DNA of 64,000 bases from Escherichia phage vB_EcoM_IME392: sequence record MH719082.1. One strand, written 5' to 3'. The notes beneath the pieces are model-generated. The model was not told the DNA's origin. It did not search any database and was given only the letters and a program-made list of their open reading frames with translations. The stretch's first letter is position 1. Every line of letters begins with the position of its first letter. Of the stretch, positions 1 through 28,343 are shown in pieces. Made by a program: the position numbers and the translations under genes.

Positions 1-931
1 TCACATCCAGAGTTGATCCTGGTTGGAACTCTCGACCAACATCTTCCATTACGTATTCTAGAATACTGTGATCGCTATTATAACGAGAAGCAGCATCTTC
101 AAGAGTAGCGATGTAATGCTGGAAGTAGGTACGGATCTTATACCAGGAATTAAGTGATCCGAGATCAATCGTAGTTACCGGAGCTTCATTAATGTCGTCA
201 ACATAAGCTCGGATATTACTTACCTGCTTCTTGATGTTCGACACTTCCGGATACCAGTGGAGATCATCCGTCATCACCACATAGTTGCCCATATCTACTT
301 TGAGCATAGTTGCGATGATTTCCTGGATGATCGTGAACTCCACCAGATTAACGTTAGTCAATCCCCAGATTAGATCATTACTACGGTTGAATACCGTGCA
401 GTCCAGACCACCATTACGGTACTTAAACGATAGAGCAATGTTGCAGATCATATCTGCGGTATTGATGCTGCCGATGCTGTTTACCAAACCTACATCAGAA
501 TCACGGCTGGGATCGTGAATAGTAGCCACGCACTTACGGTTACCCAGGTCAGAACGGAGGCGGTCTGTTACAGTCTGGAGTTGATCGTAGTTATACAGAC
601 GCTCACCGTAAGCACCACGCCAGGTAACCATATCATCGCTAAACATCTTAGCGCGAGGAACCATAATCGACATCCAGTTATCGATTGCATAGCCACCAGA
701 CAGTACCCACAATACTTCCCCCATAATTCCGAGGATATTGTCTTTACGTTCTGGATGAGCCATCCAACGATTAATCGGATTACTTAACTCAACTACAGCA
801 TGACCGATGGATACTACCGCCGAAGAGTTAACAGAAGTTCTGGACTTCTGCAACTCACCAGCCTTATCCATAGTATTGATGCTGTTAACCAGGATTTCAG
901 TATTACTGTTACCGCGAATTACCGAGATCAT
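1..931 (-). CDS. Thymidylate-synthase-superfamily enzyme, probable deoxypyrimidylate hydroxymethylase (C-terminus lies beyond window edge)
   Basis: Not in the ORF track because there is no stop in the window. My translation of the minus strand from ATG 931-929 stays open for 310 codons (MISVIRGNSNTEILV...). TS-fold motifs: WRGAYGERLY, NRKCVATIHDPSRD, Cys segment ADMICNIALSFKY (Cys codon 445-443), RSNDLIWGLTNVN, TDDLHWY. The start overlaps the kinase stop as ATGA (928-931). Confidence 0.75.
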   Translation of the reverse strand, partial: MISVIRGNSNTEILVNSINTMDKAGELQKSRTSVNSSAVVSIGHAVVELSNPINRWMAHPERKDNILGIMGEVLWVLSGGYAIDNWMSIMVPRAKMFSDDMVTWRGAYGERLYNYDQLQTVTDRLRSDLGNRKCVATIHDPSRDSDVGLVNSIGSINTADMICNIALSFKYRNGGLDCTVFNRSNDLIWGLTNVNLVEFTIIQEIIATMLKVDMGNYVVMTDDLHWYPEVSNIKKQVSNIRAYVDDINEAPVTTIDLGSLNSWYKIRTYFQHYIATLEDAASRYNSDHSILEYVMEDVGREFQPGSTLDV

Positions 932-1650
932 TTAGAGTCCTTACGCACTGAATCAATAGACTTAACTGCAGAGGACAGTAACTCCAGACGGGCCTCCTGA
1001 GGGATCATACCAGATGGCTCATTCAGGATCATAATACCTTTACCAGTATTAGTAAAACGAGCTGTGATTGATCCAGGATACACCGGATGATTCAGAGTTA
1101 CAGAATTACACAACGCAGCACCGAATCGCTCCTCGTAGGCACGCATAGTTACCTTAAGGAGAGTAGAACTGACTGCTACAGAGTATTCCGGATCAACAAC
1201 ACGGAAGTTATTGTCCTCAATACTCTTATCCTTCGTATTGAAGAACAGAGTCATGTTATAATAATCAATAGACTCGTTACTGAGACGTAATGCCTCATCA
1301 CGAGCTTCCTGGCTAGCAAACATACTGTTATGCAGCAGGAAGTAAACGTACGAATCGAATACCGCACGATCACTGACGATCAACTCGCCACGATTGTAGG
1401 CATCCTTGAACATCTGAGTTCGCTGACGAATAAGACGCAGCTGGAACTCTACCGCTTCCATAGGATCTTCCACAGCTAAGCGCAGAATATCCATATGGGA
1501 TGTTACTCCCAGAGGAAGATGGTCACGAGTCTGTACTGCACGGAAGGTACATTCGGTTGATTCTTCCCAGCCTTTAGCCAGAGTAGATTTACCGGTACCC
1601 TGCGCACCAGACATAATTACACTGTAGCCTGGGATACTATAGTCTCTCAT
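928..1650 (-). CDS. P-loop kinase of deoxynucleoside/dNMP-kinase type (candidate hm-dNMP kinase or 5-hmdU DNA kinase)
   Basis: Walker A SGAQGTGKSTLAKG. IVSDRAVFDSYVYF resembles the ERS..D..F motif of dNK/TMPK-type kinases. I prefer ATG at 1650 (GGAGAGAATA-ATG) over the TTG at 1662 used by the track. Confidence 0.6.
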   Translation of the reverse strand: MRDYSIPGYSVIMSGAQGTGKSTLAKGWEESTECTFRAVQTRDHLPLGVTSHMDILRLAVEDPMEAVEFQLRLIRQRTQMFKDAYNRGELIVSDRAVFDSYVYFLLHNSMFASQEARDEALRLSNESIDYYNMTLFFNTKDKSIEDNNFRVVDPEYSVAVSSTLLKVTMRAYEERFGAALCNSVTLNHPVYPGSITARFTNTGKGIMILNEPSGMIPQEARLELLSSAVKSIDSVRKDSK

Positions 1651-1682
1651 TATTCTCTCCAATTAAGAATCTTTCCCACATT

Positions 1683-1713
1683 TTAACAGCCTTTCAAGAC
1701 CCTAAAAGAGCGG
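1683..1713 (-). promoter_or_regulatory. Conserved early/middle promoter-like motif, copy 1 of 15
   Basis: Minus strand reads CCGCTCTTTTAGGGTCTTGAAAGGCTGTTAA followed by AAT (TGTTAAAAT, an extended -10-like element). It lies about 30 nt upstream of the kinase ATG. Confidence 0.6.
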
Positions 1714-1739
1714 ACTAAAAAGGCTGGTGTAAATGTGAA

Positions 1740-2711
1740 CTAGCTAAACTTATACCAGCGAGGTCTCATACGGATCTCGTGATTCAGTTTATGTAGTTTC
1801 GAGAATTCGCAGAATGAGTTGGTGAACATCTGACGAGTATAGAACCGCTCATCCTCCGGCATGAAGTGGAACCATTTCTCCGGCTCCCATGCATACCCGA
1901 AATGAGCACATATCTCTTTGATGTTCTGATACCACCATTCCACGAACATCTGGTAGCCGCAAGGAGGGTTCTGGTCATTAAGCATGTACCATACCCCATC
2001 CTGCGTCCCGGGTCCACATACGATAGCATCGTTATCTGTGTACGCAGTCTCTTTAGAGTAGGACATAGTTGCCCAGCATTGATATGCCATGAACGGACCT
2101 AATCCAGATACCTGTAACAGATGCTCGATGGCCTCGGTAGCGAACGGAGACTTCCATGCCAGTAAGATAGGATCACTGTAGGTCTTCACCAGATAGGCTC
2201 TGGCAGCTACACTGTACTTAATATCCTCTGGACATACTTCATTAGCCATCTTAACTGCTGTGCTAAGGAAGTAGGCATTTGATTGCTGTGGAGCAGTGAA
2301 CGGAGGACCATCCTCATAACGACGTAGCTCTTCACGACCCATGTTATGTATGTCGTCATAGCTCATCTCATAAAGAGGAAGGACTCTGCGGAAGCGATCC
2401 ATATATGAATCACCACGGTTTATCATCTGGAAGAGTACCACGTTAAGCGCCTTACTCTCCCAGCTTAGGGAATCGTTCTCCAGAATGTTCTTGATAGCCC
2501 ATACTGTTTCACGATCGTGCTTACGGAACACGTTAGTGAATTTAAACTTACTAATCCACTTATGTTCTGTCCACGGAGGAGGTAGCTTAAGTATCTCCTT
2601 CTTATAATAAACCTCAGTCCGCTCGCGGTTATACTCCACATACTCACGTAGCTCCTCGGGATTTATCATCCCGAGTAACCCGTCGAAGTGCAAACCTAAC
2701 GGTTTAGACAT
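1740..2711 (-). CDS. Conserved 323-aa protein; tentative aGPT-Pplase-like (alpha-glutamyl/putrescinyl thymine pyrophosphorylase family) DNA hypermodification enzyme
   Basis: Clean ORF with a TAATG overlap to the upstream gene (2709-2713). The segment PPPWTEHKWISKFKFTNVFRKHDRETVW matches what I recall of aGPT-Pplase-type proteins (memory only). It sits between a DNA-glucosyltransferase-like gene and a P-loop kinase plus TS-like pair. Confidence 0.4.
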   Translation of the reverse strand: MSKPLGLHFDGLLGMINPEELREYVEYNRERTEVYYKKEILKLPPPWTEHKWISKFKFTNVFRKHDRETVWAIKNILENDSLSWESKALNVVLFQMINRGDSYMDRFRRVLPLYEMSYDDIHNMGREELRRYEDGPPFTAPQQSNAYFLSTAVKMANEVCPEDIKYSVAARAYLVKTYSDPILLAWKSPFATEAIEHLLQVSGLGPFMAYQCWATMSYSKETAYTDNDAIVCGPGTQDGVWYMLNDQNPPCGYQMFVEWWYQNIKEICAHFGYAWEPEKWFHFMPEDERFYTRQMFTNSFCEFSKLHKLNHEIRMRPRWYKFS

Positions 2712-3790
2712 TAAAGAATACCTTCTTTGGTAAAGTAGTCTATTACTTCATCCTGAAGTTCTTGTGCGTAATCCTTGCGCAGATATAGATTCTCATACTG
2801 ATGTTTCAGCAGAGCATCACGATCTTTCAGTTTCTCTGCAATCTCCGCATTACTGGAGACGATCAGAGGAGCCAGTAGCTCTTCGGGGACGCCGCTCCGG
2901 ATTATTGTTCCAGCAGCATCTTTATCCACCAGCATCAGAGTACCAGAGCTCAGGTATTCGTAATAACGGTTAGGTGGGCTGGTATAGAACGAATTACTGG
3001 AGTTCCAGTCTTCGATAAGCAGTACCGCTGCATATTTAGCCACTTCATCCAGCATCTCTGACAGCTTAAACTTAGGCAGCCAGTTAATCGGAGCAGCAGG
3101 TCCCAGCCACTTACGTTCTTTAGGATCCAGCTCTTCCCAGTTTTCCTGCTCGTAGCCGTCAAATCCTGCAAGACCACCAGTATGTTTAGCGATGGACATC
3201 TGAGCTTTGTAGCTCGGCACCGACATAAACAGTTCCAGACCATCTTGCTGGGAGAAGTACTGAGTGAACTTATGGAAGCGGCCTTCACGAGCAGCACCGT
3301 AATACAGCAGGCTATTGTCCGGCTTATCTGACGATCCATAGCGAGGCTTACGACCAGGAACGTAGGTAAGACGGTTCCAGTTAATGTGATGATAGTTCTC
3401 TTCGCTAGGAGAATACTGATTACCCCAGGAAGTACGTTCAAATGCTGCTACAACTTTAAATACAGTAGCTGCGGTGATGTGTCTCCACTGCGGACCCTGG
3501 ATACGCATCTTAGACGAGTAATCCTGTCCAATCCAGTAGAACTTAGCTCCGACATCTGCCTGGTCTACCCAGAACTTATACATCTCGTCGCGGAACTTAC
3601 AGAAGGTAGGAACACCATTGATGGCGATAATCACGTCATATTTAGTGCCATCTTCCATAGCCTTAACGAACTTAGGAGTATCGTCCAACAGGTCAGCTTG
3701 AAGTCCGTAGGCTAACCAGGAAGCCAGAGTATTACTGGCAATGATGGATTTATCGCTGCATGGCGAAAAGTTAGTTACTGCAATCTTCAT
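2711..3790 (-). CDS. T4 beta-glucosyltransferase-like DNA glycosyltransferase (GT-B, GT63-like)
   Basis: 359 aa versus 351 aa for T4 BGT. Colinear matches to my recollection of T4 BGT: MKIAVTNFS / MKIAIINMG; YDVIIAINGVPTF / YDRLIVVNSSINF; LLYYGAAREGRFHKF / DVIYGGSFRSGQRESK; AAVLLIEDWNSSNSF...TLMLVDKD / IAALIIGDKNYNDNF...AVMLIDEE. Confidence 0.6.
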   Translation of the reverse strand: MKIAVTNFSPCSDKSIIASNTLASWLAYGLQADLLDDTPKFVKAMEDGTKYDVIIAINGVPTFCKFRDEMYKFWVDQADVGAKFYWIGQDYSSKMRIQGPQWRHITAATVFKVVAAFERTSWGNQYSPSEENYHHINWNRLTYVPGRKPRYGSSDKPDNSLLYYGAAREGRFHKFTQYFSQQDGLELFMSVPSYKAQMSIAKHTGGLAGFDGYEQENWEELDPKERKWLGPAAPINWLPKFKLSEMLDEVAKYAAVLLIEDWNSSNSFYTSPPNRYYEYLSSGTLMLVDKDAAGTIIRSGVPEELLAPLIVSSNAEIAEKLKDRDALLKHQYENLYLRKDYAQELQDEVIDYFTKEGIL

Positions 3791-3818
3791 GTTTAATTTC
3801 TCCGTAGGCTGTCACAAT

Positions 3819-3849
3819 TTAACAGCCTTTTAGCTCATCAAAGAAGCGA
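3819..3849 (-). promoter_or_regulatory. Conserved promoter-like motif, copy 2
   Basis: Minus strand reads TCGCTTCTTTGATGAGCTAAAAGGCTGTTAA followed by ATT. The upstream half overlaps the stop of the GT2 gene. It lies about 25 nt before ATG 3790. Confidence 0.55.
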
Positions 3850-4872
3850 GTTAGCTGATGCCCAGCTCAGCCAGTTATCGTTGAGATCGGTCAGGTAGGA
3901 GTAATCCTTATTCAGACCGAATACAGTACGGTTAGTTCCGTCGAACTTCATTATACCAGCGCCAGGAGCTCTGATGATTGCATCTTCCGTAGCCAGACAA
4001 TATTCTTTCAAGTATTCCTGGATGTTGGGACGAATACGACGGAAGGAACTATCTGCCGAGTCATAGTGGAACATATCTGCGCAGTGCCACTGTACGTAGG
4101 ATTTATCCGGACGGCTGAGTAGTTCATTACGGGTAACCATATCTTTAGGAGAATATCCCAGCTTAGCTACAGTGACTTCGTGAATACCTCCACCATTAGA
4201 CGAAGTATCCATCAGCCAGTTTTCGTCCCAGTAGAACGAAGTACCAGTACCAGTTACCTGTCCAACCTTCCAGCCCATCGCCATACCTTTAAACAACAGG
4301 TAGCAATCTTCTCCTACGGTCAACTGTTGGAAGGTTATATCGAACAGCCAGAACATCTTCTCACTGGTCTTGACCATGATACCGAGGTCAGTGGCCGGAG
4401 CAGTGTTATTATGTGACTGACGATCGCATAGTTCAACAATCTTGTAGTTACGATTCTTGAAGCTACGGACGAACGCCATCTCAAACTCAGATCCCTCGAA
4501 GTCTATAACGGAACGGTCCAGATGGAAAATATTATCTGCGAACCAGACATCATCATCCACGAAGTAGCAGATGTCTGGACACCAGTTCTGATCCTCCATT
4601 AAAATCCATGCCTTATCAAGAGCATGAGCTCGGATTCTTCCGATTACCGGATTATCGTACTTAGGACGATGCCAGAAATTAAACTGCTCGTCCCCACCGA
4701 ACTGCTCTTCCAGAACTGCCTTATCTTCTTCGGAGGCATCCTGCATAAAGTAGAAGAAACGATACTCGATAGAGTCGTCAGTCTTCTTAGCATCTTTGAA
4801 CGACTGAATCTGACGGAGTACCGACTTCATACGATGATAGGTTGGGATGATAAAAGCCACTTTGGTAGTCAT
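3838..4872 (-). CDS. Family-2-type (GT-A) glycosyltransferase
   Basis: N-terminal VAFIIPTYHRMKSV (the GT2 signature IPTYNR-like) and a DXD-like YFVDDDVWF. Only 6 nt separate it from the upstream deacetylase gene. Confidence 0.7.
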   Translation of the reverse strand: MTTKVAFIIPTYHRMKSVLRQIQSFKDAKKTDDSIEYRFFYFMQDASEEDKAVLEEQFGGDEQFNFWHRPKYDNPVIGRIRAHALDKAWILMEDQNWCPDICYFVDDDVWFADNIFHLDRSVIDFEGSEFEMAFVRSFKNRNYKIVELCDRQSHNNTAPATDLGIMVKTSEKMFWLFDITFQQLTVGEDCYLLFKGMAMGWKVGQVTGTGTSFYWDENWLMDTSSNGGGIHEVTVAKLGYSPKDMVTRNELLSRPDKSYVQWHCADMFHYDSADSSFRRIRPNIQEYLKEYCLATEDAIIRAPGAGIMKFDGTNRTVFGLNKDYSYLTDLNDNWLSWASANSLL

Positions 4873-4878
4873 ATTTAT

Positions 4879-5490
4879 TTATCCAATTTGACGAACTAAG
4901 CGAAACCCTTCGGCGTACGGCCACTGGGCAGAATATCCACGTAAGGTGGCTAGAGCTAAGATACTCTGGGTATCTCGGTCTGACTTAATCTGGGAGTCGA
5001 ATCGTCCCATAGCCTGGCACTTACACTCAATATCGTCCTTATTCAGACGCTCGAAGTAATTAGGTTCCATCTGACCGAACTGGGTCAGGGACTCGGCATA
5101 CTCATATTCCAGGATAAGCCAGTTATACGCTCGGAGAGCTACACGAGCAGCATGATTAACTAGTTGATGGTCCTGGTGTAGGCTACTGAACGGAATATAG
5201 ACTACATCCGGCCTGATTTTAGCAACATAGTCCGCAATATCCTTAGCCAATTGCGGAATATCCTTCTGAGTCATACCATCGCCTGTGGAGGCATCGTTAC
5301 GCTCCAGGCAATGTACTTCTTTGATATTCGGATAGACACCGAATGCTGCTTCGGCTTCACCACGACGGGTCTCGTCCGGAGCAGTTACTTCGAGGATGAA
5401 AAATTGGTCGTCGCGGAATTTGCTCATAATACCTCCGCAACCCAGAATCTCATCATCGTGATGTGGGCTGATAATCAATCGTGACTTCAT
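4879..5490 (-). CDS. PIG-L/LmbE-family N-acetylglucosaminyl deacetylase
   Basis: LIISPHHDDEILGCGG (PIG-L motif HPDDE) and a later HQDHQLV metal-binding-type motif. RBS GAGGA lies before ATG 5490. Confidence 0.8.
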   Translation of the reverse strand: MKSRLIISPHHDDEILGCGGIMSKFRDDQFFILEVTAPDETRRGEAEAAFGVYPNIKEVHCLERNDASTGDGMTQKDIPQLAKDIADYVAKIRPDVVYIPFSSLHQDHQLVNHAARVALRAYNWLILEYEYAESLTQFGQMEPNYFERLNKDDIECKCQAMGRFDSQIKSDRDTQSILALATLRGYSAQWPYAEGFRLVRQIG

Positions 5491-5505
5491 TATTAATCCT
5501 CGCTA

Positions 5506-5541
5506 CACAAAAATGGGGTTAGGCCGTAGAGACCTAACCCC
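5506..5541 (-). terminator. Rho-independent terminator-like hairpin
   Basis: 9-bp stem ggggttagg / cctaacccc (5515-5523 / 5533-5541), followed on the minus strand by TTTTT (plus-strand aaaaa 5509-5513). It shares the 17-nt string ctacacaaaaatggggt with the terminator at 13341-13357. Confidence 0.6.
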
Positions 5542-5557
5542 GTACGCCTCTGACACC

Positions 5558-5588
5558 TTAACAGCCTTTTAGGTCATCAAACAGGAGG
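5558..5588 (-). promoter_or_regulatory. Conserved promoter-like motif, copy 3
   Basis: Minus strand reads CCTCCTGTTTGATGACCTAAAAGGCTGTTAA followed by GGT. It overlaps the 3' end of the transporter gene and lies upstream of the 5515-5541 hairpin. Confidence 0.5.
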
Positions 5589-6959
5589 AGTTTCCTTAGC
5601 CAAGAATACTTTAGGTACAAAGATCTTGAGGAACCCGAATAGAATACACAATACCCCAATCAGTACCGGAACAGCCGATACAGCTACCAGAGTCTTCGTT
5701 ACAGTTACTACGTCACCACCTGCCCAGTTAAGTGCAGCAGCAACTACACCCATGCTTACAATCCAGAATACACGAGTTCTAGGAGCGGTCATGGACTCTA
5801 CCGTAATACCTGCTGAGTCATGACCTGTAATAAAGAACAGAATCACAGACACGAGGGTAATTACTGAGAATATCCATCCGCCTGGGAAATTAGCCAGAAG
5901 CTGGAAGATATCCTGAGCACCATGTTGCAAACCGGCTACACCGAATACGGTAAACCATACGTTACTGATAATGGTAGGGAACAGTACACATCCCAGGATC
6001 AGTTCGCGAATAGTACGGCCGTAAGAGATACGTGCCACAAACGCTCCGACGAATAATGCCCAACCTACCCAGGCTGCATAGTAAGCATAAGGCCAGCTAG
6101 CCAGCCATTGCTTCTCTTCAGCAGTACTGCCAATGTTTACCGACATAGGAATAATCTGGAGCAGATAGCTGCCAGAATAGGTGATGGTCTTCCAGAGGTA
6201 TTCAAAGAATGTACCACTTACAGCAACGAATGCCATAATAGATAGAGCTACGATTACATTATATCTGGATAACCACTTAACCCCACGATCGACACCAGTT
6301 ACGGCACTAAGTACAGTGCCCAGAGTCAGGAGTGCGATAATGGTGTAAGGACCAACATCCACACCAAGGAACTCTTTAAATCCAGAACTGATCGGGCCTA
6401 CTGCGTAGACGAACGACAGGGTTAAGCCTATGATGGTCGAGAAGAGTAAGCTTATCGTATTAAGGTTATTCAGAGTTCGGGACTTGAATAACTGATTAAG
6501 CGGACGGTCTTCACCACGTACATGCAGTAAGTACCCGAATGCCACCCCTACGACTGCATACACAGCCCATGCATTAAGTCCCCAGTCAAAGAAGGTAGTT
6601 ACCATATTCTGACGTTCGGACATACCCTCCTGATGATGGTACATAGGTTCGAGTACGCCATAATAAATCATGGATACACCCATACCGGTACTAAACATCA
6701 TAGAGTAATAGGTAAAGCGATTGTATTTCGGAGTACCTTTACCCAGCTTAATGTTACCATGTTTGCTGAATACAAAGAATGCCAGGAACGCCAGGAAGAT
6801 CAGCGAAGACCAGGTAAATATGAATCCATACTGAGATATAAATACAGACTTACTCCAGTCCATTACAGCACCAAACTGGGTGGGAGCAAACATAATGGCG
6901 AGTACAATACCCACCGTTACCAGCACCGTCCCCCAGGTAACTACCTTTGAATCGGACAT
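5577..6959 (-). CDS. BCCT-family (betaine/carnitine/choline-type) secondary transporter
   Basis: 460 aa, hydrophobic throughout with about 11-12 predicted helices by eye. FSKHGNIKLGKGTPKYNRFTYYSMMFSTGMGVSMIYYGVLEP matches the BCCT N-terminal block (RLG...F..SWFAMLFAAGMGIGL.FWGVAEP). WPYAYYAAWVGWALFVGAFVARISYGRTIRE matches the BCCT signature W.....W..W.PFVG.FIARIS.GRTIRE. Confidence 0.75.
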   Translation of the reverse strand: MSDSKVVTWGTVLVTVGIVLAIMFAPTQFGAVMDWSKSVFISQYGFIFTWSSLIFLAFLAFFVFSKHGNIKLGKGTPKYNRFTYYSMMFSTGMGVSMIYYGVLEPMYHHQEGMSERQNMVTTFFDWGLNAWAVYAVVGVAFGYLLHVRGEDRPLNQLFKSRTLNNLNTISLLFSTIIGLTLSFVYAVGPISSGFKEFLGVDVGPYTIIALLTLGTVLSAVTGVDRGVKWLSRYNVIVALSIMAFVAVSGTFFEYLWKTITYSGSYLLQIIPMSVNIGSTAEEKQWLASWPYAYYAAWVGWALFVGAFVARISYGRTIRELILGCVLFPTIISNVWFTVFGVAGLQHGAQDIFQLLANFPGGWIFSVITLVSVILFFITGHDSAGITVESMTAPRTRVFWIVSMGVVAAALNWAGGDVVTVTKTLVAVSAVPVLIGVLCILFGFLKIFVPKVFLAKETPPV

Positions 6960-6962
6960 TGA

Positions 6963-7871
6963 TTATTCCTCAATTACGCCCTTAGCGATTAACTGGCGAC
7001 GGACGTATGCGTAGCCAGCAGGTGAAGTAGCGAGGACGATGTCCGCACTACGGAAGTTGGTTTCGATATAGAAGCACTCCTGAAGATCCCGAGTACAGAA
7101 GAGCTCAGTACTCATCATACCCTCGCGTACGTTACATGCATCTGCAACGAATTGCGCAACATCTTCGAAGTGGTCTACCGAATGACTATAGCCGAATCCA
7201 CGGGCATCAGTAGATATAACGTAGTTAGGGCAGTACGGAGTGAAGTCAGTATCTTCGTAGGATTTACCCTGGATAGTGAAGATATCTGCATAGTCCTTGA
7301 ACCCGCTCGGGCTAACCAGAAGATCCCAGGCAACTACCATACCATCGATAACATCTGCCTGAAGTACCAGAGAGGTAGTATATTCGTCCGGTGCCTTATC
7401 GCAGACCAAAATTGGGGAGTCTCCCAGAAGGTCCGACATAGTGCCCGCACCCTTGCCCCCGTGAACACGATCACGGCGTACAAACGCCTCCTGAGGCCTC
7501 TGGTACAGTCTGAACGACGGTACAATCAGCGAATCAGGCAGAGTTCCCAGGTTAGCTTCGGAGCGAAGGCAGGATAATTGGTCAGCTTTAGACCACGTAC
7601 TTTCGATAGCGTGCAGATCGTTACCGATTTTGGTATAGATATAGCTTTCCGGATTACGGCACTTACCCTGATTCAACTCTTCGATAACCGAGTCGAAATA
7701 AGGAAGTCGTACTGATCCCTCACGAGGAGCAGTTAACGCTACTGAGCCATGCTTGGTATGATCCTGATCAACTACCATAACCTGGTCCAGACTTACACCC
7801 ATCTTAAGAATCTGGGATAATGTAGCTGCCGTGTGATTAGTGCAGCCAATCATCAAATCTAACTTCTTCAT
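6963..7871 (-). CDS. ATP-grasp-like ligase (tentative)
   Basis: 302 aa. Glycine-rich RRDRVHGGKGAGT and C-terminal FYIETNFRSAD (the E-x-N metal-binding motif of ATP-grasp enzymes). A 3-nt gap to the transporter gene implies co-transcription. Confidence 0.4.
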   Translation of the reverse strand: MKKLDLMIGCTNHTAATLSQILKMGVSLDQVMVVDQDHTKHGSVALTAPREGSVRLPYFDSVIEELNQGKCRNPESYIYTKIGNDLHAIESTWSKADQLSCLRSEANLGTLPDSLIVPSFRLYQRPQEAFVRRDRVHGGKGAGTMSDLLGDSPILVCDKAPDEYTTSLVLQADVIDGMVVAWDLLVSPSGFKDYADIFTIQGKSYEDTDFTPYCPNYVISTDARGFGYSHSVDHFEDVAQFVADACNVREGMMSTELFCTRDLQECFYIETNFRSADIVLATSPAGYAYVRRQLIAKGVIEE

Positions 7872-7899
7872 TTTAATTCCTCAGTTAACTTGTACAACC

Positions 7900-7930
7900 T
7901 AACAGCCTTTCGAACCCTAAAAAGAGCGAA
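7900..7930 (-). promoter_or_regulatory. Conserved promoter-like motif, copy 4 (variant CTAACAG)
   Basis: Minus strand reads TCGCTCTTTTTAGGGTTCGAAAGGCTGTTAG followed by GTT. It lies about 28 nt upstream of ATG 7871. Confidence 0.5.
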
Positions 7931-7965
7931 ATAATAGATATCTAGCCATCTCGTAAGATGGCTAT
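7931..7965 (-). terminator. Terminator-like hairpin after the methyltransferase gene
   Basis: 9-bp stem tagccatct / agatggcta (7944-7952 / 7957-7965) with a 4-nt loop. The minus-strand downstream tract is T-rich but interrupted (GATATCTATTATTT). Confidence 0.45.
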
Positions 7966-7972
7966 GTATATA

Positions 7973-8713
7973 TTACTTTAATTCGGAGAGATCTGCGATC
8001 TTCACCTTAGCTGATACATCCCAGATTCCTTCACCAAATCCGGTATCTTCCAGCAGCTTAGGCACTTCACGTTTCTGTACCTTAGATTGCTCGTACTTAA
8101 GCAGAGGAATATTACCGGTCTTATCTGATTGATCCCACAGATAAGTAGCAGCACCGATGTTATCGAACAGTGCGAGATCTGGATTAAACTGGGTAAGGAG
8201 TCGGCAGTCCCAGTGAGACTTATGTTCCTCGAAAGGATTAGTTTCCGTGCCACGCTGACGATACTCATAGTTAGGAGTACCGATCACGATTTTAGCCTTA
8301 GACTGGAATAGCTTAGACAACACCATAAGCCCGTCTTCGCTATCCAGATGCTCCAACACATCCAGCCAGATAATAGTGCCGAATTTATCCAGCTCTTCAA
8401 TAGGAAGATCTTTCAACAGTTCAACGATATTGCAGATATAGATATCGCTATATACATTTACACTGCCTTTGATGTAGTCTTCGCAGATGTCCAGACCTGT
8501 AATCTGACCATCGAATCCTGCGTTACGGAGAGCAAGACCAATTTCTCCACGACCTAATCCCATATCCAGGATTGGCCCGGAGATAATTTCGTTACGGAGC
8601 ATCCATTGGAGAAAGTGCTTCTGGACTAAGTAGGAGGTGCCTCCGTTGCCCAGTGAAGCCTTCGTGACCTTAGTACCAGGAACGAAATTACACTCGATAT
8701 GTTTACCAAACAT
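7973..8713 (-). CDS. Class I SAM-dependent methyltransferase
   Basis: Motif I ILDMGLGRGEIG, GLDICEDY, and the IIWLDVLEHL block typical of Methyltransf_11/23-type enzymes. Confidence 0.75.
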   Translation of the reverse strand: MFGKHIECNFVPGTKVTKASLGNGGTSYLVQKHFLQWMLRNEIISGPILDMGLGRGEIGLALRNAGFDGQITGLDICEDYIKGSVNVYSDIYICNIVELLKDLPIEELDKFGTIIWLDVLEHLDSEDGLMVLSKLFQSKAKIVIGTPNYEYRQRGTETNPFEEHKSHWDCRLLTQFNPDLALFDNIGAATYLWDQSDKTGNIPLLKYEQSKVQKREVPKLLEDTGFGEGIWDVSAKVKIADLSELK

Positions 8714-8739
8714 GTTCTGTCCTCATTAGTTTCGACACC

Positions 8740-8770
8740 TTAACAGCCTTTGGAGCCGTAAAAGAAGTGG
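8740..8770 (-). promoter_or_regulatory. Conserved promoter-like motif, copy 5
   Basis: Minus strand reads CCACTTCTTTTACGGCTCCAAAGGCTGTTAA followed by GGT. It sits between the 8785-8812 terminator and ATG 8713. Confidence 0.6.
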
Positions 8771-8784
8771 TATTGTACATATTC

Positions 8785-8812
8785 AAAAATTAGGGTGGCC
8801 GAAGCCACCCTA
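8785..8812 (-). terminator. Rho-independent terminator (UUCG loop)
   Basis: Stem tagggtggc / gccacccta (8791-8799 / 8804-8812). The loop cgaa is UUCG on the minus strand. A T5 run follows on the minus strand (plus-strand aaaaa 8785-8789). Confidence 0.75.
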
Positions 8813-8817
8813 GTTAG

Positions 8818-10065
8818 TTACAGTTTACCGATCATCTTCTGAATCATCTCGTCAGAAGTCTGATTCTCTACCTTAGCACGACGTTCTTGCAGATTAGCAA
8901 TGCGGTCGTCGTGATCTTTCTTACGTAGCATGCTGATGCTACGGCTAAGGCAGGAATTCAACACTTCCTGGGTAATACCGAGAGCTTTGATGATCTGAGC
9001 ATCAGACTTATCCTGCATAACCAGCTCGCCCACTTTAGGAAGAATCTGGTAAATCTCGATGTCTCGGTCAATCTTCTTAAGAGACTCAGTCTTATGGACG
9101 GAGAATGCCTGATTGTAGAGAGCCATCGTGACTGCAATCCAGTCGCGAATACCCATCGTCACCAGTTGACCATTGTAGGCTACCTGGATACGATGCGAGC
9201 GGTTCATGTAAGCAATATTCATGCATGCTTCGTGAACCTCGTCCATATCGATGGTCCTGATACGGGGAGCCTTCATTACTCGGATATAGATCTTATCCTT
9301 GGACATGTTCTTGACCAGGATCTTACCTTCTGATAACCACTTATTCAGGAACCCGATGCGAGGAGTAATTACCTCACCAGACCCGATGATGTCGATGGTG
9401 TCGGTATTGACGCGAGTTACCTTAAGGGTAAGGCCTAAGCGACCTACACCAGTTTCCCATAAGGACTTAAGGTCTGACTTACTCGGCACGATATCATACC
9501 CGTACTGAGCCTTAAGCAGATTATAATCGTCATGCTTGTAGGCTTCCAGCAGACTCTCGTAAGTGAATGCTGGGATACGGGACTGAATACCAGTAGCCCA
9601 TGAGAAGGTACCATACATCAGAGCATACGGAATAGGCACTGGAAGGTATGCGTATTCCATCTTCTCTTCACCTTCAACCTGCGGAACATAGTCCGCTAGA
9701 CCGAAGTAGTATTCTGCACGATCTTCGTTCAGGCCAACCTTCGTGTAACGAGGAGCAGCACCAGGAACTTCTTCCAGCAACTTAACGCCGAAAGATCCCT
9801 GACCATCAATAGCACCGATGCGAGCAAGACGGGAAATAGTCCCATCGATAGACTGGTCACCGAATGGGTGTAGCGACTGAGTTTCTGAGATAGCGCTCAG
9901 AGTCCCCACCAGCTTCCCACGAGCAATGCTATTCAGAGCCATGTAGATACGGCGCTGGGCAGGAATCAGGCCATCGATACCGGGAACTACACGATGAAGA
10001 GCACAATACACACTGTAGTCAGTGTAGTTCTTGGTGATGAATTCAGAAATCTTTACCTGTTCCAT
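8818..10065 (-). CDS. DNA topoisomerase II, DNA-cleavage subunit (T4 gp52-like / GyrA N-terminal-like)
   Basis: DGLIPAQRRIYMAL (GyrA/ParC motif DGLKPVQRR) and AAPRYTKVGL (active-site Tyr context). Adjacent to the ATPase/Toprim subunit. Confidence 0.85.
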   Translation of the reverse strand: MEQVKISEFITKNYTDYSVYCALHRVVPGIDGLIPAQRRIYMALNSIARGKLVGTLSAISETQSLHPFGDQSIDGTISRLARIGAIDGQGSFGVKLLEEVPGAAPRYTKVGLNEDRAEYYFGLADYVPQVEGEEKMEYAYLPVPIPYALMYGTFSWATGIQSRIPAFTYESLLEAYKHDDYNLLKAQYGYDIVPSKSDLKSLWETGVGRLGLTLKVTRVNTDTIDIIGSGEVITPRIGFLNKWLSEGKILVKNMSKDKIYIRVMKAPRIRTIDMDEVHEACMNIAYMNRSHRIQVAYNGQLVTMGIRDWIAVTMALYNQAFSVHKTESLKKIDRDIEIYQILPKVGELVMQDKSDAQIIKALGITQEVLNSCLSRSISMLRKKDHDDRIANLQERRAKVENQTSDEMIQKMIGKL

Positions 10066-10067
10066 AA

Positions 10068-12053
10068 TTACTCCTTAAACAGACCGTAGTCTTCTAACAG
10101 TTGGCGACGAGCACGAGATGAGTACAGCAACTTACGAGCGGCATCGAGATGCTCTTCATTATCATCGTAGGTTACCTGGATAAGACGGCGAGATTTCGAG
10201 TTAATGATGAATTGCTCAGTTTCTTCTTCGGTATATGACCCGAGTCCCTTACGACGTTCAACATAGCACTTATCGAAGTCGATCTTATCCTTCTCGTCAG
10301 CGTAGTAGAACTCGGTCTTCTTACCATTCTTAACTACATAGAACGGAGCTTCGAGTTTATACAGACGACCATCTTTAACCAGCTCTGGAGCATGGATAAG
10401 GAAGATTGAGCTAATGAGGTTACTGATGTGCTGACCATCAACATCAAGGTCGGTCATAATGATGATCTTACCGTAACGAGCCTTATCTATGTCAAACATC
10501 TGGCCCATACCACACCCGATAGTATTGATGATCGCCAGCAGCTCTGGGTTATTCACGAATTCCATGATATCCATGGAAGCCGAGTTACGCATCTTACCGC
10601 GAAGAGGAAGCACCGACTGATACTCATTACGCAACTTGATGATATTACCAGAAGCAGACGGACCCTCTGTGATGAACAGCTCACGAAGATCCCAGCGGTC
10701 GGACGGAGATTCGTAGATCTTCGCCATGTCACCATCCATAGCGGCCTTACGGTGATCATCACCCATCACCAGCTTAGACTTAATGAAGTCCATGTTGGAG
10801 AGTTTATTCAGGCTAGCTTTGTAAGCCAGGATCTTGGCAATCAGAGCATCAAAGAATTGCTTATTCTTCTCGTATACCAGGCTGAAGTAGAATGTGAGCT
10901 GACTCAGGCATTCTTTCTCGTAGAAGAAGTACTCGCCATAATAGTCGTAATCGTTGATTTGCTCATCATTCAGCATCAACTTATTCTTAGCCATGATTTC
11001 CCAGTCGCTCCAGGACATACCGAGGCCAGTTAACTTCTCCTTAGTCTGCGAGGAGAATGCTGTACGATAGCTGGAGAAGACGTTAGTGAACACGATCAAT
11101 CCCAGCTTAGCATCACCAACAGTGATAGCAGAGTTAACTTTATTCAGCATACCGCCGAGCGCTCTCGTGACCAGCTTCTCATGCAGACCACCATGCGGGT
11201 TATTGATCAAGTTGATCATGTCTACATGGGAGTAGGACATATTCTTATCAGAGTAGCCCAACTCACCAGAGAAGGTCAGACGATCGTTGAACGAGAACTC
11301 GTACTTGACTGTAGTATCGAGGAACAGCTTCTCATTCTCTGCAACATCACGACGAAAATCCCAGGTAGCCAGAGCTTCACCATTAACGGTGATAGTTGCA
11401 TCACGACCAATCAGGGAGATCTTCAGAGGAACAGTATCCACATCAGACCAGATGCTGCGGTACAGAGTCGCATCAGGCACCATGAAGACTGCTGTGGAGA
11501 AGTCGGTAGCCTTTAACGTCTCGAGCACTTCGTCTGGGAAGCCATCGTCGTGAAGATCATTCAGATCATTGATCACTCCATCGATTTCCATAACACCACG
11601 GCGGAATCCGAGGACATAGAACTGACCTGGCTCCATAGGGATGTGTGCCTTATCTCCCTGCATTACGCGACGGATTACAACGAATCGCTCGGACACTGCG
11701 TTAACAGCGGAGCTACCTACGCCATGGGTACCAGAGGTAATTTCACGGTTATCGCCCAGCTTAGAGCCAGCATGCAGATCTGTTACAGTAGAGAACAGAA
11801 TAGATTTAGACGGATCTTCCGGATCAGCGTAGATAGGAATACCACGTCCGTTATCGGTAACCAACTTGTAGGCTTCACGGTTAATGATCTGCACTAGGTT
11901 AGCATAACCATTAAGCAGCTCGTCCTCCGCATTATTGATTATTTCCTGGAGAGGATGAGTGTAGTTAATCGGGTCACCGAGATACATGGATACGTTCTGA
12001 CGAACGTTATCAGGGTAACGCAATCTTGTGATTTCAATAGCATGTTCTGACAT
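10068..12053 (-). CDS. DNA topoisomerase II, ATPase + Toprim subunit (T4 gp39-like / GyrB-like)
   Basis: NNAEDE, DNGRGIP, GTHGVGSSAVNAVS (GHKL ATPase blocks), ITEGPSASG and MTDLDVDGQHI (Toprim). Confidence 0.9.
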   Translation of the reverse strand: MSEHAIEITRLRYPDNVRQNVSMYLGDPINYTHPLQEIINNAEDELLNGYANLVQIINREAYKLVTDNGRGIPIYADPEDPSKSILFSTVTDLHAGSKLGDNREITSGTHGVGSSAVNAVSERFVVIRRVMQGDKAHIPMEPGQFYVLGFRRGVMEIDGVINDLNDLHDDGFPDEVLETLKATDFSTAVFMVPDATLYRSIWSDVDTVPLKISLIGRDATITVNGEALATWDFRRDVAENEKLFLDTTVKYEFSFNDRLTFSGELGYSDKNMSYSHVDMINLINNPHGGLHEKLVTRALGGMLNKVNSAITVGDAKLGLIVFTNVFSSYRTAFSSQTKEKLTGLGMSWSDWEIMAKNKLMLNDEQINDYDYYGEYFFYEKECLSQLTFYFSLVYEKNKQFFDALIAKILAYKASLNKLSNMDFIKSKLVMGDDHRKAAMDGDMAKIYESPSDRWDLRELFITEGPSASGNIIKLRNEYQSVLPLRGKMRNSASMDIMEFVNNPELLAIINTIGCGMGQMFDIDKARYGKIIIMTDLDVDGQHISNLISSIFLIHAPELVKDGRLYKLEAPFYVVKNGKKTEFYYADEKDKIDFDKCYVERRKGLGSYTEEETEQFIINSKSRRLIQVTYDDNEEHLDAARKLLYSSRARRQLLEDYGLFKE

Positions 12054-12089
12054 AATTTCTCCGGTCAGGTTTAAATAAGCTCACACAGT

Positions 12090-12120
12090 TTAACAGCCTT
12101 TGGAGGCCTCAAAGGAGCGG
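12090..12120 (-). promoter_or_regulatory. Conserved promoter-like motif, copy 6
   Basis: Minus strand reads CCGCTCCTTTGAGGCCTCCAAAGGCTGTTAA followed by ACT. It lies inside the last 10 codons of ORF 12090-12752 and about 35 nt before ATG 12053. Confidence 0.55.
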
Positions 12121-12752
12121 TTCACGAACAGGACTAAATCCTCTACTCTGGACTTATCTACCCACTCTGTTCTTCCTGGTAAGGACCTATTAGACTCGGA
12201 GAAGAAAGATAATCTCACTTTTGATTCTAAATCCACTCCCTCTTCTTTAGGCATCTCGATTAAGATTAGCGGGGTCATACCGATGCCTAATCCATCTAAT
12301 CTTCTTTCTATATTTGAAGTAATCCCATATTTAGCATTTCCAGATTGGTCCAATACGATATAAAAGACCACCTTACCTTCTGGAATGGTAGATATCGCTA
12401 GGTTCTTAATCACAGAGTTAGCGTATTCAGGATTCAACCATCGTTTATGATTTGAAGAGGATATCACTTTAGACATCTTCTTCTGGTAGTTCTCATCTTC
12501 CCACATTTTAATGTTGCGATTAGTCATGGAAACAGACCTAGCCCTGGTGGCGCATTCTGATCTTCCACATGTAGGACGATAGCCCTTAATCACGGATTTA
12601 AAGGAGCAGGGTTTTCCACATGAACATATTTTTACAGGAAAGAATTTTAAGTAATATTCATGCGGAGTTAAGCCATGAGATTTGGCATGGGAGGGAAATG
12701 CCTGGCCTCTTACTTCGGCAGAGCATATTCTACATTTATGATTCATAATCAT
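12090..12752 (-). CDS. Free-standing homing-endonuclease-like protein (N-terminal Zn-ribbon, DNA-binding repeats, C-terminal T5orf172/GIY-YIG-like domain)
   Basis: CRICSAEV...SHAKSHGLTPHEYY; repeats W.D.NY.KKMS / RWLNPEY; C-terminal VVFYIVLDQSGNAKYGITSNIERRL. Visibly more AT-rich than the flanking topoisomerase genes. Confidence 0.5.
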   Translation of the reverse strand: MIMNHKCRICSAEVRGQAFPSHAKSHGLTPHEYYLKFFPVKICSCGKPCSFKSVIKGYRPTCGRSECATRARSVSMTNRNIKMWEDENYQKKMSKVISSSNHKRWLNPEYANSVIKNLAISTIPEGKVVFYIVLDQSGNAKYGITSNIERRLDGLGIGMTPLILIEMPKEEGVDLESKVRLSFFSESNRSLPGRTEWVDKSRVEDLVLFVNRSFEASKGC

Positions 12753-12990
12753 ACCACTTAGTTAATTCAAGGAAGTCATCCATCGCGGAATTAAAGAAGG
12801 AGTCTATCTCCTTAGCCATTTCCTTGGCGAAGCGACCAGATTCGGTCGACATCACTACCTTAGCCTCGCCCATAGGGTGCTTGACCACTTCGTAGATTCC
12901 CAGATTTGGGTAATACACTATGCTGGATAGGAAGTTTACAGACTTAACCACCACAGTATTGAATTGAGTTACTTCCACCATCTTAATCAT
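12736..12990 (-). CDS. Hypothetical 84-aa protein (paralog of the next gene)
   Basis: ORF with overlapping junctions. Shares the pattern Y.P....Y.V ... DSF....D.FL with ORF 12987-13226. Confidence 0.5.
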   Translation of the reverse strand: MIKMVEVTQFNTVVVKSVNFLSSIVYYPNLGIYEVVKHPMGEAKVVMSTESGRFAKEMAKEIDSFFNSAMDDFLELTKWYDYES

Positions 12991-13226
12991 GCTTCACCTA
13001 CCATTTTCAGGAAGGTGTCTACCATAATCGGGTCGAAGCTATCGACATCGGCAGTATGCATCAGGGCGGAGAATAATGAGTTAGCCCAGTGCTCCGTAAC
13101 TCCGTCTTTACCTTCGAGAATTACGCAGTACTGATCTTTGGAAGGATGGTACTGAATCTTAGCAACATTGCGATTCGAGGTCAGGACCAAAATCTTGGTT
13201 CCCGAGATAGTGAAGATTCTAGACAT
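12987..13226 (-). CDS. Hypothetical 79-aa protein
   Basis: I place the start at ATG 13226 (MSRIFTISG). The track's longer start at 13301 would run into the terminator/promoter region. Confidence 0.45.
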   Translation of the reverse strand: MSRIFTISGTKILVLTSNRNVAKIQYHPSKDQYCVILEGKDGVTEHWANSLFSALMHTADVDSFDPIMVDTFLKMVGEA

Positions 13227-13345
13227 ATAATAATCCCAAATTAGAAGATCCGCAGCGGGAACGCCCCGCCACCCAAAAGAACGGGCTTTAGGAGGTCCCA
13301 TAAATCGTTTTATTTTTCATTATTTGAAAAATAAAATAATCTACA

Positions 13346-13370
13346 CAAAAATGGGGTCCGAAGACCCCAT
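13346..13370 (-). terminator. Rho-independent terminator (UUCG loop)
   Basis: Stem atggggtc / gaccccat (13351-13358 / 13363-13370), loop cgaa, then a T5 run on the minus strand. It lies 4 nt after the stop of the Mre11-Rad50 gene. Confidence 0.75.
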
Positions 13371-13373
13371 CAA

Positions 13374-28181: not shown

Positions 28182-28343
28182 TTAAATTTTACATGCATCT
28201 CCGCAGTCGTCGTCACCAGGCTGGCTGATAACTTCGTCTACGTTAACCATGCGATCTTCTACACGACGAGATGCCTCGTCTAATTCTTCCTGAGATGGGA
28301 GATTGGAGAAATCCAATTCTTCACCAGATTTATTGCCTGACAT
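28182..28343 (-). CDS. Small acidic 53-aa protein
   Basis: Start placed at ATG 28343 (GGAGTGATT-ATG; MSGNKSGEELDF...DDDCGDACKI). The track start at 28388 lies inside the upstream gene. Confidence 0.45.
   Translation of the reverse strand: MSGNKSGEELDFSNLPSQEELDEASRRVEDRMVNVDEVISQPGDDDCGDACKI

Follow-up and report, generated by a model that had tools for sequence, protein, structure and literature searches.

A stretch of 64,000 nucleotides from Escherichia phage vB_EcoM_IME392 (sequence record MH719082.1; genome size, 116,460 bp), hereafter called the window, was analyzed around three consecutive minus-strand genes at positions 5577-8713, whose products are identical to IME392 entries. The central open reading frame (ORF 6963-7871) encodes a protein of 302 amino acids, designated here X (AXY86084.1, annotated as hypothetical), which is a member of a tiny phage-only family and very probably has an ATP-grasp fold. 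The gene that follows it (5577-6959) encodes a BCCT-family transporter of 460 amino acids (AXY86083.1, putative BCCT family transporter), and the gene that precedes it (7973-8713) encodes a putative class I S-adenosylmethionine (SAM)-dependent methyltransferase of 246 amino acids (AXY86085.1, annotated as hypothetical), which appears as a lineage-specific cassette gene. The predicted activity of X is that of an ATP-dependent carboxylate-amine ligase, and X is rather likely to act on the transported solute within the pathway of thymidine hypermodification to which the surrounding gene cluster points.

By sequence profiles, X is an orphan. It matched no family in Pfam, PHROGs, NCBIfam or PADLOC, no ATP-grasp family of Pfam was found at E ≤ 1 for X or any of the ten members of its family, and X was not recognized as an ATP-grasp protein by Pfam, PDB, PHROGs or NCBIfam. 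A phmmer search of the PDB with X gave a single match to an NAD-oxidoreductase (E = 0.018), which was judged spurious. Searching 5.8 billion clusters by word index gave four relatives, and an exhaustive scan of 1.84 billion representatives with an HMMER profile gave seven; a third search with a wider profile added none. Pattern scans of IMG/VR, the JGI metagenome contigs and the 185,579 GTDB species genomes detected no relatives, and no other was found among the GenBank phages searched, in a collection used without the IME392 genome itself. In total, X is present in only about 10 clusters out of 15 billion proteins. P0011 and P0012, two long proteins of repetitive sequence, matched the glycine-rich segment alone (E ∼1e-4 to 1e-3) and were disregarded.

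The conserved residues of the family are nevertheless those of an ATP-grasp enzyme in form and order. In an alignment of 10 sequences (25-98% identity to X), the invariant positions are Q20, D35, G42, F59, D60, K95, Q98, F130, R132, G138, K140, S187, Y194, G251, E256, F258, E270, R274 and D277, and those nearly invariant are N272 (in 9 of 10), H137, S189, F191, K192 and D196. R132, G138 and K140 fall within the segment FVRrDRvHGGKgAG, E256 within STELF, and E270, N272 and R274 within IETNFR; these segments, the last in the general form (F/Y)IE(T/S)NFRxxD, match the ATP-grasp signature. The first may be read as the basic residue on a strand (the lysine/arginine strand) together with the glycine-rich phosphate loop or lid. 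X thus displays the pattern of the Mg2+-ligand triad (D/E ... E-x-N) alongside a basic residue and a glycine-rich loop. The E-x-N-x-R form is known from biotin carboxylase, carbamoyl phosphate synthetase (CPS), PurK/PurT and the L-amino-acid ligases.

The predicted structure leads to the same assignment. An initial AlphaFold2 model, built from five close sequences, was discarded (predicted local distance difference test score, pLDDT, 39.5). With the 10-sequence alignment, to which five distant relatives from the HMMER scan had been added, the model reached a pLDDT of 74.9 and a predicted template modeling score (pTM) of 0.80, and the poorly modeled parts were solely residues 38-44 and the loop 123-156, which holds the glycine-rich segment. 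The model, of medium to good confidence, has the three-domain alpha/beta architecture of the ATP-grasp fold. In a Foldseek search against the PDB all 50 of the top 50 matches were ATP-grasp proteins (best E = 1.1e-6), and the best fold matches were carboxylate ligases without exception. An independent model of the identical protein in BFVD (A0A385IRG1) superposes on ours at a TM-score of 0.91, and the next matches in the viral library were ATP-grasp proteins of phages and giant viruses. E256 is placed on the predicted strand 248-260 and E270/N272 where strand 266-272 ends, with R132, G138 and K140 in the flexible 123-156 loop. Since E256 and E270/N272 occupy the usual sites of the ATP-grasp metal ligands, X is regarded as probably an active enzyme. 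The lid is very short, with ∼25 residues from R132 to the hinge strand. The ATP-grasp-like nature of ORF 6963-7871, as claimed in the original prediction, is therefore borne out by a model that matches ATP-grasp proteins alone and by the conserved catalytic pattern; of the searches it had proposed, the structure search was positive and the profile search, in both Pfam and the PDB, was negative.

The second line of evidence is the partner of X. The stop codon of the X gene (TAA, 6965-6963) is separated from the ATG of the transporter gene (6959) by exactly three nucleotides (tca), with no promoter motif and no hairpin between the two, and the genes probably form one transcription unit that is probably also coupled in translation. 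The transporter matches Pfam PF02028 over residues 7-446 (E = 1e-92), a full-length domain. Among proteins of solved structure it is closest to BetP (E = 3e-48, whole core aligned), and it retains the GMGV motif and the BetP aromatic-box residues W189, W194, Y197, W374 and W377. Two positions differ in all of the X-linked BCCT proteins: W373 of BetP is replaced by Ala (Asn in L007, one of the contigs introduced below) and G153 by Ser. In BetP, an Asp at the latter position (the G153D mutant) gives a choline-transporting protein. The NCBIfam cut-offs for BCCT subfamilies were missed by the window protein (244 versus 650), and the X-linked transporters are minimal, at ∼460 amino acids without regulatory termini. 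Their substrate is likely to be cationic, and probably of the trimethylammonium type.

The contigs of every X relative (L002 to L009) were fetched, and the gene directly 3' of X was inspected in a total of 10 contexts. A BCCT gene was found, with a gap of 3 nucleotides, in the window and in the related Escherichia phage EP_H11, likewise at +3 in L002 (X identity of 71%), at +2 in L003 (72%), and with overlaps of 8, 35 and 1 nucleotides in L004 (37%; BLASTP E = 9e-20), L007 (30%) and L009 (30%), respectively. In L005, where X is 28% identical over the aligned region, the partner, which starts one nucleotide after X, is a Sugar_tr-family MFS transporter (E = 3e-37). The gene in L006 is a fragment of a PylC-like-N (ATP-grasp) protein, and that in L008 an uninformative fragment of 85 residues. 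Thus, a solute transporter stands directly 3' of X in 8 of the 10 contexts, with BCCT in seven lineages and MFS in the eighth. BCCT genes are nearly absent from bona fide phage genomes outside such pairs. Moreover, X and its transporter diverge in parallel relative to the window (BCCT identities of 89%, 43% and 44% in L002, L007 and L009, against 71%, 30% and 30% for X). The functional coupling of ligase and transporter, which had been proposed from the short spacing, accordingly holds well beyond this phage: the gap is exact, and the pairing persists down to 30% identity.

In terms of gene content, the window contains the components of a 5-hydroxymethyl-2'-deoxyuridine (5-hmdU) cluster, namely thymidylate-synthase-like, P-loop kinase and aGPT-Pplase-family genes, all on the minus strand with the pair. 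The thymidylate-synthase homologue (1-932; 3' end beyond the window edge) is the presumed deoxyuridine monophosphate (dUMP) hydroxymethylase; its orthologues in L002, L007 and L009 match Pfam Thymidylat_synt. The P-loop kinase (928-1662; AAA_28 or dTMP-kinase-like) is a candidate 5-hmdU DNA kinase, or a kinase of the corresponding monophosphate (hmdUMP). The third component is the HMUDK_hel protein (1740-2711; Pfam PF18723, E = 3e-35), a member of aGPT-Pplase clade 1 and a marker of 5-hmdU-based thymidine hypermodification, whose relatives were detected by tblastn in 252 phage records, RP13 and Ackermannviridae phages among them. Between this gene and the transporter lie two putative glycosyltransferases and a de-N-acetylase. 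The GT-B-like protein (2711-3790) gave a weak match to Glyco_trans_1_2 (E = 0.023) and is 75% identical to its counterpart in L002; the GT-A-like protein (3838-4872) has an IIPTYHR N-terminus and a DDD motif, matches no profile, and has a paralogue in L002 (26% identity). We infer both of these assignments. The PIG-L/LmbE-family de-N-acetylase (4879-5490; Pfam PIG-L, E = 7e-14) has intact metal-site motifs, PHHDDE and HQDH. A 5-hmdU DNA kinase has been stated to be undetectable, in a remark about RP13 whose preceding clause names EP_H11 and IME392 (bioRxiv 10.1101/2025.03.26.645540).

A similar gene environment surrounds the pair elsewhere. The thymidylate-synthase homologue and the AAA_28 kinase occur in every long X-bearing contig, and HMUDK_hel also occurs in L002 and L009. 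PIG-L stands directly 3' of BCCT in the window, EP_H11, L002, L003 and L007, i.e., in all of the long contigs except one. L002 is fully syntenic with the window cluster. In L007, the X, BCCT and PIG-L genes overlap one another and are followed by topoisomerase II, the kinase, the thymidylate-synthase homologue and an HD phosphatase. In L009 the pair is preceded by the kinase, the thymidylate-synthase homologue, an HD phosphatase and a primase-like gene, and is followed by a GT-B-like gene, a GT4 gene, a cupin (mannose-phosphate-isomerase-type), a small cytidylyltransferase-like gene (CTP_transf_like), ADDT (an aGPT-Pplase-2-type transferase family), an inositol-1-phosphate-synthase-like gene, HMUD2 and HMUDK_hel. 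Either PIG-L or a glycosyltransferase is the direct neighbor of the pair in six of the seven lineages with enough sequence. Since the neighbors are reshuffled while the pair stays beside a deacetylase or glycosyltransferase, the pattern is that expected of a functional link to the modification glycan. As a separate observation, the gene set of L009 at 7009-14536 hints at a thymidine modification derived from a cyclitol or a cytidine diphosphate (CDP)-alcohol. Outside the cluster, the window encodes a further DXD glycosyltransferase (24349-25140, minus strand; Gly_transf_sug-like, Pfam E = 5.5e-4), homologous to the one located just 5' of X in L004 (E = 9e-20) and to a glycosyltransferase in the L002 and L003 cassettes described below.

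The transcription units of the cluster were delineated by a promoter-like motif of ∼40 bp, CGCTCTTTT-N9-10-AAAGGCTGTTAA(A/G)nTGT (short form, CGCTCTTTT-N9-10-AAAGGCTGTTAAnnTGT), which includes an extended -10-like TGnTAAAnT and is often followed by a small leader hairpin. The window contains 14 copies, versus 0.03 expected by chance. All of them are minus-strand sites within 1678-29184, each ∼15-100 nucleotides 5' of the start of an early or replication gene; among the sites are 1694-1678, 3830-3814, 5569-5553, 7910-7894, 8751-8735, 12101-12085, 18129-18113 and 29184-29168. The motif probably represents an early/middle promoter class of the phage. A scan for the sigma-70 consensus gave 16 sites, versus 17 expected from shuffled sequence, and was not used. 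As divided by the phage motif, the units comprise the methyltransferase gene; X with BCCT (motif at 7894-7934, core 7910-7894, minus strand); PIG-L with the GT-A-like gene; the GT-B-like gene with HMUDK_hel; and the kinase, probably together with the thymidylate-synthase-like gene. BCCT and PIG-L are separated by a minus-strand segment (5515-5569) in which the motif (5569-5553) stands before, rather than after, a terminator-like hairpin (5541-5515; GGGGTTAGGTC...GGCCTAACCCC plus a U-run; -21.5 kcal/mol). Transcripts that start from this motif would meet the terminator in their own leader, 5' of PIG-L, and the arrangement could represent an attenuator or the terminator of the X-BCCT unit overlapping the next promoter.

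The methyltransferase gene is bounded by similar elements. One of the 14 motif copies, CTTCTTTT...AAAGGCTGTTAAGGTGT, is located 5' of it (8735-8775, core 8751-8735, minus strand), preceded by an intrinsic-terminator hairpin with U-run (8791-8812, minus strand; -17.8 kcal/mol, z = -4.9) that closes the topoisomerase operon. The hairpin between the methyltransferase and X genes (7943-7964, minus strand; -13.5 kcal/mol, z = -4.3) is a weak terminator with no contiguous U-run, so that read-through from the methyltransferase into the X gene is possible. Both ORFs start with ATG and have a GAGGA ribosome-binding site 7-8 nucleotides upstream. The suggestion that the methyltransferase is its own promoter-plus-terminator unit thus holds, the downstream hairpin being the weaker of the two.

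The product of ORF 7973-8713 (minus strand; METHYLTRANSFERASE) carries the motif I sequence LDMGLGRGE (GxGxG) and an acidic strand-2 residue in GLD. It matched Methyltransf_25, _23, _31 and _11 (E = 4e-5 to 1e-3), all under the gathering scores; in the PDB, it matched 3dli, an uncharacterized archaeal methyltransferase (E = 2e-4), the methyltransferase domains of bacterial Hen1 (E = 0.005-0.09) and other small class I enzymes. In NCBIfam, Hen1 (TIGR04074) reached 15.1 bits versus a cut-off of 340 and UbiG 24.5 versus 103, with BchM likewise far below. Neither (D/N/S)PP(Y/F/W) nor PP, PC or ENV occurs in the 246-residue translation, and there was no DNA-methyltransferase family among its Pfam, NCBIfam and PHROG matches. 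The reported absence of DPPY/NPPY is hence confirmed in a wider form, and without (D/N/S)PP(Y/F), PC or ENV motifs the protein is not a DNA amino- or C5-methyltransferase. When the C-terminal half was searched alone, human HENMT1 was the sole match. The alignment pairs LDVLEHLD with IELIEHLD, GTPNYEY with STPNSEF and EEHKSHW with DSDHKFEW (Hen1/HENMT1 E = 0.005-0.5), and the Hen1-like pattern D-x-x-E-H...TPNyEY...EHKsHW also aligns with Hen1 of C. thermocellum. The corresponding segments of HENMT1/Hen1 carry the four metal ligands. The protein might accordingly be a metal-dependent O-methyltransferase with a sugar diol as its target, but this is a resemblance and not membership: the Hen1 score falls far short, the N-terminal domain is lacking, and Pnkp was not seen in the window. 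A C-terminal extension of ∼70 residues is unique with respect to the Hen1 and UbiG enzymes.

The methyltransferase is confined to one species. Its only homologues are copies at least 98% identical from the IME392/EP_H11 species; none below 97% identity was detected in the search of 5.8 billion proteins, and none in the IMG/VR pattern scan. The otherwise syntenic sister phages L002 and L003 lack the gene. There, between topoisomerase subunit A and X (L002, 3674-7578; L003, 1808-5712), five other genes fill its slot, encoding a DXD glycosyltransferase, a GT-A paralogue, a phosphatidylserine-decarboxylase-like protein (E = 2e-7), a weak ATP-grasp_3 match and a CxxCxxCC protein. The second ATP-grasp-like ORF of L002 was considered as a relative of X and rejected (hhalign probability of 0.2%). 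The five-gene cassette suggests a more elaborate or a different adduct in these phages. Because the slot is one of variable tailoring genes and the promoter is of the cluster type, a tailoring role is the best guess for the methyltransferase, and we regard it as evenly balanced. In this role the enzyme would be an optional, lineage-specific addition to the pathway, most likely methylating a hydroxyl or the amine of the sugar adduct. The alternatives first offered for this gene were tailoring of the adduct and ordinary DNA or RNA methylation: the class I assignment is likely, an ordinary DNA amino- or C5-methyltransferase is not supported, the protein groups with no characterized family above the trusted cut-offs, and tailoring is favored only through association with the cassette position.

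Taken together, these data suggest that the phage decorates its DNA with a small molecule taken up from the medium. In the proposed scheme, the BCCT protein would import a quaternary-ammonium-type solute during infection, the host supply being insufficient. The likeliest solutes carry a carboxylate (glycine betaine, carnitine or gamma-butyrobetaine), which X would activate as an acyl-phosphate and join, through an amide bond, to the amine bared by PIG-L on an N-acetylhexosamine of a 5-hmdU-linked glycan. The product would be a bulky and permanently cationic hypermodified thymidine. The known thymidine hypermodifications are cationic (putrescinyl, aminoethyl, aminoethoxymethyl and diaminopropyl), and the fixed positive charge of the proposed product is in line with them. 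That an amine made by PIG-L, or the BCCT import, would supply the partner of the ligase was part of the original prediction; this idea is consistent with the position of PIG-L directly 3' of BCCT in all but one of the long contigs. As a whole, the combination of import and ligation by the X-BCCT pair with methyltransferase tailoring in thymidine hypermodification is the best explanation at hand, held tentatively and at slightly under an even balance. The specific chemistry, in which a betaine-type acid is joined to a PIG-L-made amine, is doubtful.

Several points weigh against this interpretation. Even with the 10-sequence profile of the X family, no ATP-grasp protein of the PDB was found at E ≤ 10; the mapping of residues to functions in X comes from motif position and predicted secondary structure, and the lid region (123-156, including K140) is both unusually short and of low model confidence. 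The Ala or Asn in place of W373 and the Ser at position 153 indicate that the substrate of the X-linked transporters may not be a classical betaine, and the sugar-porter-type partner in L005 is a poor fit to a betaine-only account. PIG-L is not beside the pair in L009. The cluster is located in the early/replication region, and shared timing alone could explain part of its embedding. As for the methyltransferase, all of its family matches are below the curated cut-offs, and the E-x-x-E-H and TPN motifs are common in UbiG-type enzymes. Beyond the fold, the motifs and the synteny, the roles of X, the transporter and the methyltransferase are ones that we infer.

Other explanations were weighed for X and its partner. 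X could be an ATP-grasp-fold kinase, which would phosphorylate an imported choline, alcohol or polyol, the phospho-compound then being moved onto the glycan or linker of the modified thymidine. Such a route would agree with Vibrio phage 1.031.O, in which BCCT is joined to choline kinase, cytidylyltransferase and LicD, with the CTP_transf_like and inositol-1-phosphate-synthase-like genes near the pair in L009, and with the sugar-porter-type MFS protein of L005; phosphate also occurs in the thymidine adducts of related phages (PMC12686479), an analogy with the SP-15, YerA41 and Carin-5 types. However, the best fold matches of X are all carboxylate ligases, and X has the E...E-x-N-x-R pattern of enzymes that form acyl-phosphates. 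The ATP-grasp inositol-phosphate kinases have a D...D-x-N pattern instead. Moreover, no homologue of a cytidylyltransferase, choline kinase or LicD was found among the window cluster ORFs (928-8713), the kinase fusion of 1.031.O is unrelated to X, and an amine acceptor explains the PIG-L synteny better, so that the kinase reading appears unlikely. Nearly the same low probability, or marginally less, is assigned to an auxiliary metabolic or osmoprotection module independent of DNA, in which the transporter would load the infected cell with a compatible solute and X would convert or trap that solute or make a small peptide-like one. The cell would thereby stay productive, and the proximity to the modification genes would be a matter of early expression. 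BCCT proteins are indeed classical osmolyte importers, with BetP as the nearest solved relative; the promoter motif is shared with topoisomerase and other replication genes; and in L007 the topoisomerase genes separate the pair from the thymidylate-synthase and kinase genes. Yet the pair was found only in phages with 5-hmdU hypermodification genes and was absent from the IMG/VR, JGI metagenome and 185,579 species genomes covered by the pattern scan; PIG-L or a glycosyltransferase adjoins it in most lineages, and osmoprotection needs no trapping enzyme. Finally, X might modify proteins, by adding residues to a phage or host protein or by cross-linking it, in the manner of RimK, tubulin-tyrosine ligase (TTL) or the macrocyclases of ribosomally synthesized and post-translationally modified peptides, with an indirect link to the transporter. 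This is improbable to a still greater degree: no gene for a precursor peptide or carrier protein is conserved beside X, the conserved neighbor being the transporter, and the motif forms of RimK and TTL differ from E-x-N-x-R.

For the methyltransferase, the competing account is that it lies outside the DNA pathway, as an acquired moron encoding a Hen1- or UbiG-like O-methyltransferase of RNA 3' ends (e.g., repaired tRNA) or of a metabolite. Its own promoter motif and flanking hairpins, its confinement to the IME392/EP_H11 species with loss of synteny in L002 and L003 at this gene only, and its nearest, albeit weak, relatives (Hen1, HENMT1, UbiG and BchM) are compatible with this account, which deserves to be kept as a minority possibility of some substance. 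Against it stand the 15 bits versus 340 for Hen1 without the Hen1 N-terminal domain, the lack of any Pnkp or RNA ligase seen in the 64-kb window, the glycan and amino-acid tailoring genes that hold the same slot in the sister phages, and a promoter class identical to that of the cluster genes.

The predicted import-ligation pathway was compared with known systems. The established ATP-grasp carboxylate-amine ligases (D-Ala-D-Ala ligase/VanA, PylC, BacD/RizA/BL00235, LysX/ArgX/RimK, PurK/PurT and the CPS-like 2pn1) share only 8-15% identity with X, and no ATP-grasp profile detects it; X differs from them further in its very short lid, the SPSxFKxYxD motif peculiar to its family, its restriction to phages and its adjoining transporter gene. 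The known building blocks of thymidine hypermodification (amino acids, polyamines and nucleotide sugars) come from host pools. In the pathways of ViI, M6, PaMx11, PhiW-14 and SP10, amino acids or polyamines from these pools are attached, and tailoring is performed by pyridoxal phosphate, radical-SAM, flavin and acetyltransferase enzymes (PMC5889632; PMC8989533). The IME392 cluster resembles these in combining a dUMP-hydroxymethylase-like protein, a P-loop kinase, an aGPT-Pplase-family protein and tailoring enzymes. In contrast, it includes an ATP-grasp protein, a membrane transporter and PIG-L, and its aGPT-Pplase-family protein belongs to clade 1 (HMUDK_hel) and not to the characterized clade 2 transferases. 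On the strength of the DNA polymerase gene and the thymidylate-synthase-like gene, IME392 and EP_H11 have been assigned to the SP-15/YerA41/RP13-like group (PMC12686479); they are also listed as probably thymidine-modified, since an aGPT-Pplase gene is present (bioRxiv 10.1101/2025.03.26.645540). The thymidine hypermodifications of this group involve a linker, phosphate and oligosaccharides (PMC12686479; bioRxiv 10.1101/2025.03.26.645540), and the modification block of Carin-5, of the SP-15/YerA41/Carin-5/RP13-like group, likewise encodes glycosyltransferases and an N-deacetylase. Neither of these two reports contains X, the BCCT protein, the methyltransferase or the chemistry of the IME392 adduct. 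The terms "ATP-grasp" and "transporter" have no occurrences in the text of PMC8989533, a preprint on phage DNA glycosyltransferases mentions neither ATP-grasp nor a BCCT transporter, and full-text searches of the literature returned no paper in which phage DNA hypermodification is tied to either ATP-grasp enzymes or BCCT transporters.

A closer parallel for the placement of the importer is found in Vibrio phage 1.031.O (MG592415.1). At 5824-8822, overlapping genes encode, in order, a cytidylyltransferase/choline-kinase fusion, a divergent BCCT protein and LicD, which would together constitute a complete phosphocholine pathway of the Lic type, with the importer between the activating and the transferring enzymes. 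The Lic pathway consists of the LicB transporter, the LicA choline kinase, the LicC cytidylyltransferase and the LicD transferase. As in that pathway, the importer gene of IME392 stands beside a solute-activating enzyme and a glycan-acceptor enzyme. Unlike it, the window has no choline kinase, cytidylyltransferase or LicD in ORFs 928-8713, activation would be performed by an ATP-grasp enzyme, and the cluster is not a member of the Lic type. The transporters also differ, in that the 1.031.O protein retains the full Trp prism of BetP (AWWFLW), whereas W373 is replaced in the X-linked proteins. Position 153 was tried as a discriminator of the X-linked and Lic-linked transporters and dropped (Ser versus Gly); W373 does separate them. 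The gene 5' of BCCT in 1.031.O was rejected as a relative of X (hhalign probability of 0.4%), and thymidine-hypermodification genes were not detected in the 64-kb portion of that phage that was covered. By analogy, a phage BCCT protein set between an activating enzyme and a transferase may be a recurrent design.

With respect to previous knowledge, the ATP-grasp superfamily fold and the 5-hmdU cluster type are established. What is new is an ATP-grasp family invisible to sequence profiles and limited to a handful of phage lineages, together with its operon link to a BCCT (once MFS) importer and with PIG-L, inside a DNA-hypermodification cluster. The further proposal, that quaternary-ammonium import and ligation to a de-N-acetylated amino sugar yield a betaine-like, cationic glycan adduct dependent on the medium or gut, is unlikely in this exact form. 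If true, the adduct would be the first DNA modification to rely on a membrane transporter encoded by a virus for its building block, with environmental solutes serving as modification donors, and X would be the first ATP-grasp enzyme known to act in DNA hypermodification. X also provides a case of a family hidden from profiles, whose fold and active site are nonetheless recoverable, and which could be defined as a family. IME392 and EP_H11 are cultured phages of E. coli, which renders the hypothesis directly testable, and knowledge of the adduct bears on the sequencing difficulties of this phage group, on resistance to restriction and CRISPR, and on possible tools for the enzymatic labeling of DNA.

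The general organization of the window is that of a myovirus. Early and replication genes occupy the minus strand from position 1 to ∼29,200 and include topoisomerase II subunits, an SbcCD-like nuclease, an RNase H/FEN-like protein, a helicase and RusA, and the remainder carries structural genes on the plus strand (gp23-like capsid protein, tail sheath and endosialidase tailspike). The nearest record in the phage collection searched by BLAST is EP_H11, with 93% nucleotide identity over 500-9000 and full synteny. Some additional features were observed. Within the topoisomerase II subunit A gene of L007 (9312-11708), there is an intein with an HNH endonuclease (Intein_splicing and HNH_3). The early region of the window also encodes a protein of the YpsA/SLOG family (28330-28812, minus strand; E = 8e-7), whose members are predicted binders of nucleotides or nucleotide-derived ligands. 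The tailspike (59505-62492, plus strand) has the full endosialidase architecture, comprising the End_N_terminal domain, beta-propeller (E = 2e-205), beta-barrel, tail-spike domain and S74 chaperone, which implies polysialic-acid (K1-type) capsules as the target of the phage.

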